From: a virus
Length of the DNA stretch: 64,000 nt
Direction: 5' to 3' (one strand)
Virus record (IMG/VR): IMGVR_UViG_3300047476_000577
Span: 40,247 to 104,246 of that record
Shown here: positions 9,148 through 64,000 of the stretch, one piece after another
Numbering within the stretch: the first letter of the stretch is position 1
Layout of the letters: each line of letters begins with the position of its first letter
Made by a program: the position numbers and the translations under genes
The notes under the pieces: model-generated
What the model was told of the DNA's origin: nothing
Database searches by the model: none
The model's input: only the letters and a program-made list of their open reading frames with translations

Positions 9148-9587
9148 GTCTCAAATGCGAGCTCTGCTTTTACGGTACATTCATTAAACGTAAAATTATC
9201 TAGCAAAGCTTCTGTATCAATGAAAGTATCGCATTGATAGTCACTAGAAAAACGTGTAACGTACACAGTGTCTATCCTGTCGATAAACGACTGTATCAAT
9301 TTAGCACCGCCTATTACTACTGCATCTGCAGGTATAGCAGGGTCGTCTATTGATTGTACTGTAATAACACCGGGTATGTCAATAGGCTTGCTAGTGACTA
9401 TAATGTTTGTTCTATTAGGTAATGGCTTAGGGAAAGCAGGATCGTCCCAAGTCTTGCGGCCCATTACTACTGTTTTGCCTAATGTGTGTTGTTTAAACCA
9501 AGCAAAGTCTTCTTTATTTTTTGGCCAAGGTAGTGTACCGTCTTTGCCGATCCCGCCATTAGAATCGACTGCAAATATAGCCTTCAT
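9123..9587 (-). CDS. folA: Dihydrofolate reductase
   Basis: [28 protein letters not shown]; adjacent to thyA. Confidence 0.95.
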
Positions 9588-57938: not shown

Positions 57939-58132
57939 CCACATTACAGTGCATTTTAGGCTGACGCTTGTTAAACACTAGCCGGGATTCGAACCCGTAC
58001 TTTCCGCCACAAGGCGGCTGGTCTTCCGTTAACCTACTAGGACTCCTTAGCGGTGCGCTCGGCAAAGCGGTGCGCTGAGGGACAAGATACAGACCTTCTG
58101 ACGATTGCCGTCATCAGCCTAAAATGCACTGC

Positions 58133-62802: not shown

Positions 62803-63036
62803 TTAAAATACAATAGCTTCCTTAGTGATCTTACGTAATACTAAGTTAACGCCAGATAACACTAATGCTTGTGTACTAGGATCAATAATAAATCCCCACT
62901 TCATCTGTGCAAACAATGCACCTGCTGCAATAATGTTAACCCAAACGGTTTTAGATGTATACCACTTCTTGCCAGTGTTCTCGCTAAGAATTGCATCTGC
63001 TGCCGCTGTTGTTAAAGAGTCTTTAATAGTTGCCAT
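62803..63036 (-). CDS. Small membrane protein (holin-like)
   Basis: KKWYTSKTVWVN, two TM segments, NLVLRKIT. Confidence 0.65.
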   Translation of the reverse strand: MATIKDSLTTAAADAILSENTGKKWYTSKTVWVNIIAAGALFAQMKWGFIIDPSTQALVLSGVNLVLRKITKEAIVF

Positions 63037-63069: not shown

Positions 63070-63161
63070 TGGCGGGGAGATAGTAGAATCGAACTCTAAG
63101 CTGCTCATCACAACTCCATCGGTTTTCAAGACCGTGCCAGACCCAGTCTGGATAACTCCCC
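63070..63161 (-). tRNA. tRNA-Ser(UGA)
   Basis: Long variable arm, G73, CCA. Confidence 0.88.
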
Positions 63162-63418: not shown

Positions 63419-63494
63419 TGGTACTCGGTACGGGATTCGAACCCGTTTTTCCAGATTGAAAGTCTAGCGTCCTAACCAAGTAGACGAACCGAGC
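63419..63494 (-). tRNA. tRNA-Glu(UUC)
   Basis: Cloverleaf, CCA. Confidence 0.93.
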
Positions 63495-63500
63495 AAATTT

Positions 63501-63590
63501 TGGTGGAGAGTGATGGAATCGAACCACTTGGCTAGCCACCCCACTTAACAAAGCCTACCGGGTTACAGCCGGCAACGGGGAACACCCTCC
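63501..63590 (-). tRNA. D-armless tRNA-Tyr(GUA)
   Basis: GGAGGGT/ACTCTCC-A-CCA, 10-nt linker instead of a D-arm, loop CTGTAAC, 28-nt variable region. Confidence 0.7.
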
Positions 63591-63826
63591 AGTATTCTAA
63601 AGTACATTAAAACATTGACCGAAAGCAGTGCAAAACGGTTGCAGTAATGTACTTTAGAATACCCTGTATTTCTACAGGATATGACAGGGTTATACCCTGC
63701 CCAGTAATTTTTCACTCCACACAAGGAGCTTCATCCTACTGTCCGCCCTTTTACAACTTATTATAGTGTGTTGTCAGGTCTACGTTACCTGGCCATATAG
63801 GACTTATTTTAACACTTGCTTAAAGC

Positions 63827-63856
63827 AAAAAACCCTAGGTCTTTCGATCCTAGGGT
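63827..63856 (-). terminator. Intrinsic terminator (attenuator) upstream of the tRNA array
   Basis: ACCCTAGG...CCTAGGGT followed by a T-run; its 5' arm has a competing partner at 63905..63912. Confidence 0.8.
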
Positions 63857-63881
63857 CCTTGAAGTTTGTAGTAAGTTTCGA

Positions 63882-63998
63882 TTACTCTCTACCTACATCT
63901 CCTCGGACCCTACGAATGTGCTCATAGCCGCGATCGGATTTATTAATCTGTGACCAAGCAAAGGGCATTGAGCCTTGCTGTGGCAGCACACTAATAAA
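63882..63998 (-). CDS. Putative attenuator leader peptide (5' end possibly outside the window)
   Basis: FISVLPQQGSMPFAWSQINKSDRGYEHIRRVRGDVGRE*; overlaps the antiterminator strand. Confidence 0.55.
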   Translation of the reverse strand, partial: FISVLPQQGSMPFAWSQINKSDRGYEHIRRVRGDVGRE

Positions 63999-64000
63999 TT

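Follow-up and report, generated by a model that had tools for sequence, protein, structure and literature searches.

Genes and RNA elements at the head of the tRNA array

The stretch of DNA analyzed here (the window, 64,000 nucleotides) makes up the final 64 kb of a virus fragment of 104 kb from IMG/VR, and its position 64000 is the end of the contig. The fragment is estimated to be about 29% complete, which identifies its source as a jumbo phage. The current view of large tRNA arrays in phages is that they replace tRNAs destroyed by host defences or under-supplied by the host; how such arrays are regulated is, to our knowledge, essentially unknown. The array of this phage comprises 42 tRNAs called by ARAGORN and further tRNA-like RNAs, and it follows, in the minus-strand direction, a leader made up of a short reading frame, hairpins and a terminator, all on the minus strand of the window. 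The first 9 codons of the frame, like both promoters, fall past the end of the contig and can be seen in a related one, L018 (8884-9039). The features are as follows.

L018 8266-8898: 210-residue TilS-type PP-loop gene (PF01171, E = 2.5e-30), just before the leader and the tRNA array
L018 8884-8912: promoter 1, TTGACA-17-TAAAAT (11/12), overlapping the TilS stop
L018 8978-9006: promoter 2, TTGACA-17-TAAACT (10/12), its -10 box ending 6 nt before the ATG
63885-63998, minus strand: short reading frame, 38 visible codons of 47 (full frame, L018 9013-9153, plus strand)
63910-63927, minus strand: small hairpin CTATGA / TCGTAG, which in full-length folds takes the first bases of arm A
63893-63912, minus strand: 5' arm of the antiterminator hairpin (arm A), within codons 38-45 of the frame
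63882-63884, minus strand: stop codon TAA, which both variants of the sequence place within the apical loop region of the antiterminator hairpin
63851-63871, minus strand: 3' arm of the antiterminator hairpin (arm B), whose last five bases, CCCTA, also begin the terminator stem
63827-63855, minus strand: intrinsic terminator with a 7-bp stem, a 9-nt loop and T6
63739-63826, minus strand: conserved spacer after the terminator, with TATAAT at 63765-63760
63419-63738, minus strand: highly structured RNAs (z = -5.5), namely hairpins, a long AU-rich stem (63592-63662) and a Tyr-like element (63501-63591)
63419-63494, minus strand: first canonical tRNA of the array, Glu

Three relatives (L018, L019 and L020) were obtained from a metagenome scan with the neighbouring 77-residue gene, and all of them extend upstream past the contig end. 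L018 shares 98.6% identity with the window, L019 carries an identical leader and L020 is 77-89% identical; the comparison of the leader is one between two lineages. Searches by blastn and tblastn of 50,697 phage records returned nothing usable for the sequence beyond the contig end, and pattern scans of IMG/VR found no copy.

The array itself contains several unusual elements on the minus strand. The tRNA-like RNA at 63501-63591 has a CCA end, an anticodon loop with GUA (Tyr) and a normal T arm, and no ordinary D arm; it was not called by ARAGORN and reached only 28 bits with Rfam. The RNA at 63074-63161 is a tRNA with a long variable arm that was missed by ARAGORN and matched the Rfam tRNA-Sec family at threshold (47.5 bits versus 47). 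Since its anticodon loop, CUUGAAA, gives the anticodon UGA, it is most simply a tRNA-Ser(UGA) and not a selenocysteine tRNA. At 57973-58044, a tRNA was called by ARAGORN with an undetermined two-base anticodon (Rfam tRNA, 33.8 bits), and it is also found in L018. Eight elements between 50631 and 63662 consist of long (17-21 bp), nearly perfect AU-rich stems that close unrelated inserts of 35-100 nt; they fold at -25 to -48 kcal/mol, and the copy at 63592-63662 is absent from L020. A weak match to Y-RNA-like RNAs (YrlA; 40 bits, below the gathering score of 69) was observed at 49292-49416, about 0.6 kb from a 472-residue frame at 47271-48689. The gene for a hydrophobic 77-residue protein, with a Shine-Dalgarno sequence, is embedded between tRNAs at 62803-63036; proteins about 50% identical to it occur in other phage contigs, some of them also adjoining tRNA arrays, and it belongs to no Pfam family.

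The frame has 47 codons and starts behind two promoters

Direct reading of the sequence confirmed two statements of the initial annotation, namely that the 38 visible codons cover 18 amino acids and that they include five different arginine codons (CGC, CGT, AGG, CGA and AGA), one for each of the five arginines. The visible frame ends with TAA. The same annotation had conceded that the frame might be the end of an ordinary long gene. This is ruled out by the three relatives that cross the contig end, in each of which the full frame has only 47 codons, with an in-frame TAA four codons before an ATG-ATG. The frame of L019 is identical to that of L018, and in L020 the last six codons differ and the stop falls in the same alignment column.

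Upstream, where it had been proposed to look for a short ORF and a promoter, the start of this 47-codon frame is preceded by two sigma-70-type promoters, which match the phage's own TTGAC-17-TATAAT type. From these promoters to the terminator the leader measures about 200-290 nt. If transcription started at the canonical distance of 7 nt past the -10 box of promoter 2, the transcript would begin at the A of the frame's ATG; the first 13 nt of this predicted transcript are unpaired in the fold. Between the terminator and position 62913 no promoter site scores 9/12 or more, so the first tRNAs and the embedded 77-residue gene seem to depend on upstream promoters, and, as far as can be judged from the sequence, they appear to be driven by the two that precede the terminator.

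The terminator is pre-empted by an overlapping hairpin

The terminator stem pairs CCCTAGG (63855-63849) with CCTAGGG (63839-63833), five of the pairs being G-C, and is followed by T6 (63832-63827). It begins 26 nt past the stop codon, has a folding energy of -12.9 kcal/mol when the hairpin is taken alone, and is identical in L018, L019 and L020. Within the last codons of the frame, TAGGGTCC (63912-63905) is exactly complementary to GGACCCTA (63858-63851), and the helix is extended by the pairings GAGG/CTTC and TGTAG/CTACA. The end of the frame does, as claimed before, pair with a segment overlapping the 5' arm of the terminator, arm B sharing CCCTA with the terminator stem.

We compared the two structures in an 86-nt context that included 63 nt of native upstream sequence. 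In all three variants, the Boltzmann probability of the full terminator stem, P(T), was 0.006, versus 0.9 for the helix between arms A and B (A:B), which was about 3 kcal/mol more stable than the fold containing the terminator. The other six terminator candidates in the window, when treated alike, had P(T) values of 0.23-0.98, this terminator alone being pre-empted to such an extent. No substitute for the upstream 63 nt, be it one of 1000 shuffled versions or one of 489 natural phage 63-mers, brought the terminator down to 0.006, and P(T) fell below 0.05 in only 0.2-0.5% of the shuffled or natural control contexts. The overlap between A:B and the terminator is more than chance, and the attenuator-type geometry that had been recognized by eye is real and statistically strong, being matched in 0 of 1489 control contexts.

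Folding of growing prefixes of the transcript indicated that the full A:B helix is the best structure from nt 176 to nt 190, before the 3' arm of the terminator is complete. As A:B forms first, is more stable and uses five bases of the terminator, these predictions indicate that the terminator is pre-empted by default and that transcription continues into the tRNAs. The small hairpin at 63910-63927 is a candidate anti-antiterminator or pause hairpin; its tract is identical in all relatives and thus uninformative as to covariation. A search with Rfam, T-box included, found no family in the leader at E values up to 1, in the window or in L018 and L020.

The hairpin is maintained in a diverged relative

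L018 and L020 share about 95% identity over a tract of about 900 nt (L018 8212-9111) that comprises the 3' half of TilS, the spacer and the leader frame, versus 70-80% elsewhere, which suggests either a recent exchange or an unusually strong constraint. In the distal part of A:B, a 33-nt patch differs by 17 substitutions between the two lineages. Both versions of the patch fold better than shuffled copies of themselves (p = 0.021 and 0.0075), and chimeras made of the 5' half of one and the 3' half of the other are 3-6 kcal/mol weaker. One of the changes in the patch turns a G-U pair into an A-U pair, and an A-to-G change in arm B of L018 converts U-A to U-G. The maintenance of the distal helix through 17 substitutions, together with the weakness of the chimeras, indicates that A:B is under selection as a structure.

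L020 differs in a second respect. Directly after the terminator it carries an inserted 52-codon gene (L020 8941-9099) with a good Shine-Dalgarno sequence and no promoter of its own, which should therefore require read-through. This gene is in the same frame as the 47-codon leader frame, and its 52-residue product had no match in Pfam.

Beyond these relatives, a leader composed of a frame and a terminator was found at none of 80 more distant TilS-like loci of IMG/VR (41-51% identity), and is thus specific to the lineage of the window. A promoter at the end of TilS is common at these distant loci. In several distant jumbo-phage relatives (L039, L045, L069, L077, L093 and L123), a promoter at the end of TilS is accompanied by a tRNA-Met(CAT) within 9-44 nt. 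A tRNA-Met(CAT) placed after a TilS-type gene may in reality be the Ile2 tRNA, the substrate of an enzyme of this type.

These data bear on another account of the locus, according to which it is the ordinary end of a TilS-like operon, the hairpin overlap and the open frame being coincidental in a 3' untranslated region. TilS indeed has no terminator of its own before that of the leader, and RNA contigs (described below) run unbroken from TilS through the frame. Yet two strong promoters lie between TilS and the terminator, and neither the absence of a comparable overlap from the control contexts nor the persistence of the distal helix is expected under this account, which we regard as improbable. 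We conclude that the terminator/antiterminator leader is real and non-random, and that its location is the one expected of a regulator acting on the array's first transcription unit.

Read-through molecules are present in metatranscriptomes

The locus is represented by Logan contigs in four metatranscriptome runs, and the leader also occurs in 14 DNA runs. In one study (runs X17 and X18), contigs were unbroken from TilS through the frame, and separate contigs bridged the T-tract, with flanks of 33 and at least 76 nt. These bridging contigs ended at L018 9287-9299 (window 63751-63739), one of them continuing into an Illumina adapter, and the recorded depth beyond this point was low. The adapter junction suggests a defined RNA end at 63739-63751, perhaps produced by processing just ahead of the next structured RNA. 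Runs X15 and X16 each gave one flat, uninformative contig.

Read-through molecules thus exist; DNA carry-over into the RNA libraries is possible, and the contigs are silent on regulation. Contig depths and uncovered stretches were left out of quantification. Contigs ending at L018 9208, inside the T-tract, have the appearance of terminated transcripts; they were rejected as 3' ends, as this position coincides with an in-branch of the de Bruijn graph, the following contig beginning 30 nt before it and a variant entering at 9171-9178.

The frame does not resemble an ordinary gene

The initial annotation had described the frame as "pan-codon". This composition proved to be close to what any open frame gives and is at best weakly unusual (P ~0.03). 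Among the 38 visible codons, 30 are different (P = 0.03), the 18 amino acids covered have a P value of 0.16, and five arginines on five codons one of 0.04. In the full frame, the occurrence of all 20 amino acids gave P ~0.03 whether real genes or random open frames served as the null, and 35 different codons in 47 gave P = 0.21 when compared with random open frames. Codons for a single amino acid are not clustered in the frame, arginine being the commonest residue with its five codons. The lack of any codon run argues against an amino-acid-specific attenuator of the trp or his type.

Other coding signals were also weak. No Shine-Dalgarno sequence precedes either ATG of the frame; its core is present in only about a third of the phage's genes. 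The codon log-odds of the frame (-2.1 bits) correspond to the 2nd percentile of windows from real phage genes (12.2 ± 6.2) and lie in the usual range for non-coding open frames (-4.9 ± 6.5). A leader peptide would look just as non-genic if its sequence did not matter, so that codon usage cannot separate a translated from an untranslated frame. Searches of 5.8 billion and 1.8 billion (representative) proteins found as homologues only the frame's own three-member cluster, and Pfam had no match for the 47-residue product. Three long repetitive proteins matched in the 1.8-billion-protein search were taken as spurious.

We considered two further readings of the leader. The first is that of a stand-alone, moron-like small gene: two promoters, an RNA of about 200 nt (a small RNA or the mRNA of a micro-protein of 47 or 28 residues) and a terminator, A:B serving as a stabilizing or processing structure and the tRNA array owing its expression to other signals or to incidental leakage. 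This reading accords with the order of promoter, short RNA and terminator; gene callers did call the frame on metagenome contigs, and small stable RNAs are known from phage tRNA clusters, examples being the species 1 and 2 RNAs of T4. The TATAAT that follows the terminator (63765-63760) is conserved in L020 and could be taken as a separate signal for the array; it lacks, however, the -35 box shared by the phage's promoters, and the next gene of L020 has no promoter. The sequence around it does not recur elsewhere in the window. A boxA-like word just past the T-tract was dropped, as it is not conserved in L020. Under this reading such a gene would have its own terminator pre-empted to more than 99% by its own 3' end, an odd arrangement encountered at no other terminator here; the lack of any protein homologue and the non-genic codon usage also weigh against a micro-protein. 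On balance we think a stand-alone small gene rather unlikely.

The second reading is that of an RNA-only conditional or leaky terminator, in which the leader and A:B are real and the frame is untranslated. Either A:B would set a fixed, low termination efficiency, and with it the proportion of leader RNA to tRNA precursor, or it would be stabilized or opened by a partner (a protein, a tRNA or some other RNA), as in protein-dependent antiterminators and put-like elements. All of the structural evidence for the leader applies equally to this reading, and the non-genic codon usage, the missing Shine-Dalgarno sequence, the strong folding of the frame region and the RNA contigs, which suggest substantial read-through in nature, agree with it. 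The body of the frame folds as a long hairpin (z = -2.4), a property shared by many of the array's non-coding elements; the resemblance of this hairpin to the long AU-rich stem elements of the array is only loose, and it was not assigned to them.

The position of the frame argues in the other direction. The frame starts at the predicted start of the transcript, and in L020 it stays open through nine substitutions in its last six codons, with TAA keeping its place in the loop of both variants. Among shuffles, 1.3% contained a frame that begins with ATG, runs for 47 codons or more and ends in the hairpin loop (P = 0.013 by chance); for frames of 20 codons or more ending in the loop the figure was 12%. 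Elsewhere in the frame, L018 and L020 differ by three changes, all of them synonymous and all at unpaired positions of the RNA. Conservation of the frame was rejected as evidence of coding, as the whole tract from the 3' half of TilS to the frame is about 95% identical in L018 and L020. No ligand or protein partner is indicated for an RNA-only switch, and the negative Rfam search, which extended to T-boxes, points the same way. We regard an RNA-only device as likewise rather unlikely.

A ribosome in the last codons is predicted to release the terminator

We modelled the effect of a ribosome by forcing a 27-nt footprint to be unpaired at each codon in turn, the calculation being thermodynamic only. 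In this model, P(T) was 0.97 with the A site at codons 37-46, versus 0.11 without a ribosome. At all other positions it remained below 0.16, except at the transition codons 36 and 47 and the stop codon 48 (0.21-0.58). With ribosomes stalled at codons 8-9, 13-17, 27-28 and 32-34, the modelled probability of A:B was 0.6-0.9, clearly above the ribosome-free state, and stalls elsewhere upstream of codon 35 gave a leaky baseline.

These predictions are compatible with the following mechanism. The 47-codon frame would be translated from the predicted start of the transcript and translation would stop in the loop of A:B. If a ribosome advanced as fast as RNA polymerase and came to codons 37-46, it would cover arm A and leave arm B free; the terminator would then form and the transcript would be aborted. 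If the ribosome were missing, slow or halted at an earlier codon, A:B would stay intact and the tRNA array would be transcribed. The output would thus rise when translation capacity falls, and the leader would act as a general sensor of the translation rate, of the bmrB type, and not as an amino-acid-specific one.

Ribosome-mediated attenuation is our leading reading, as the most specific one that fits all parts of the leader; we put it forward tentatively, at somewhat less than an even chance. With similar reserve, we propose that the leader may be the head of the first transcription unit of the phage tRNA array (40-plus tRNA genes) and may be built as a transcription attenuator. The initial annotation had gone further, proposing that the loss of almost any tRNA would cause antitermination. 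The attenuator-like behaviour of the model supports the general idea; the breadth of the claim is not borne out, as only stalls at certain codons clearly raise the antiterminator. The link that it drew from the leader to tRNA damage and "decoy RNAs" is purely conjectural. A further reading is a feedback sensor of the phage that would report the overall decoding capacity of the cell: host defences such as anticodon nucleases, or starvation, would slow the ribosomes on the leader, the antiterminator would persist and transcription of replacement tRNAs would rise. We hold this reading to be doubtful. If true, it would be the first leader-peptide attenuator over tRNA genes and the first counter-defence circuit of its kind.

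Discussion

The present analysis identifies, at the head of a phage tRNA array, a concrete element that is open to synthesis and testing. If it is controlled by ribosomes, the phage would measure translation capacity and adjust its supply of tRNAs, and leader-peptide attenuation would be extended to RNA genes. Even if it functions through RNA only, the leader marks where transcription of the first segment of the array is set.

The classical attenuators of amino-acid operons (trpL, hisL, leuL and pheL) consist of a promoter, a short frame, overlapping hairpins (1:2, 2:3 and 3:4) and a U-tract terminator, followed by structural genes. The phage leader has its elements in the same order, with the stop codon just before the segment that is shared with the terminator. 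It differs from them in lacking a cluster of codons for a single amino acid and in the length of its frame (47 codons versus 14-32). Furthermore, in the absence of a ribosome the phage leader is predicted by the model to read through, whereas the trp leader terminates, and the downstream genes are tRNAs in the phage and biosynthetic enzymes in the classical operons.

T-box leaders share with the phage leader a terminator/antiterminator arrangement that is tied to tRNA biology. Yet no specifier loop or T-box sequence was recognized in the leader, in line with the lack of a T-box match in Rfam at E values up to 1. The put elements of phage HK022 are structured RNAs located just downstream of the early promoters, which act on RNA polymerase and enable it to pass terminators. 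Compared by description only, they resemble the phage leader in being structured RNAs near a promoter that aid the passage of a terminator; unlike A:B, which competes directly for the bases of the terminator, put does not overlap one.

The closest parallel to the mechanism favoured here, ribosome-mediated attenuation, is the bmrB-bmrCD leader of Bacillus subtilis, an experimentally tested attenuator with a leader frame of 162 nt (PMC4191407). In that system a slow ribosome allows the antiterminator to form, which reports the general rate of translation, and rare codons slow translation (PMC4191407). The phage leader is known by computation alone, whereas bmrB is known by experiment. Both have a long leader frame (162 nt versus 144 nt here, stop included), a terminator, an antiterminator and a further alternative hairpin upstream, and neither has a run of one regulatory codon; to the rare codons of bmrB corresponds the non-optimal codon usage of the 47-codon frame. 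The bmrB terminator lies inside the coding region and is reported to be more stable than the antiterminator, whereas the terminator of the phage leader follows the stop codon and is the less stable of the two structures. Finally, bmrB governs a drug exporter on a Gram-positive chromosome, whereas the phage leader would exert a putative control over the tRNA array of an uncultured freshwater jumbo phage.
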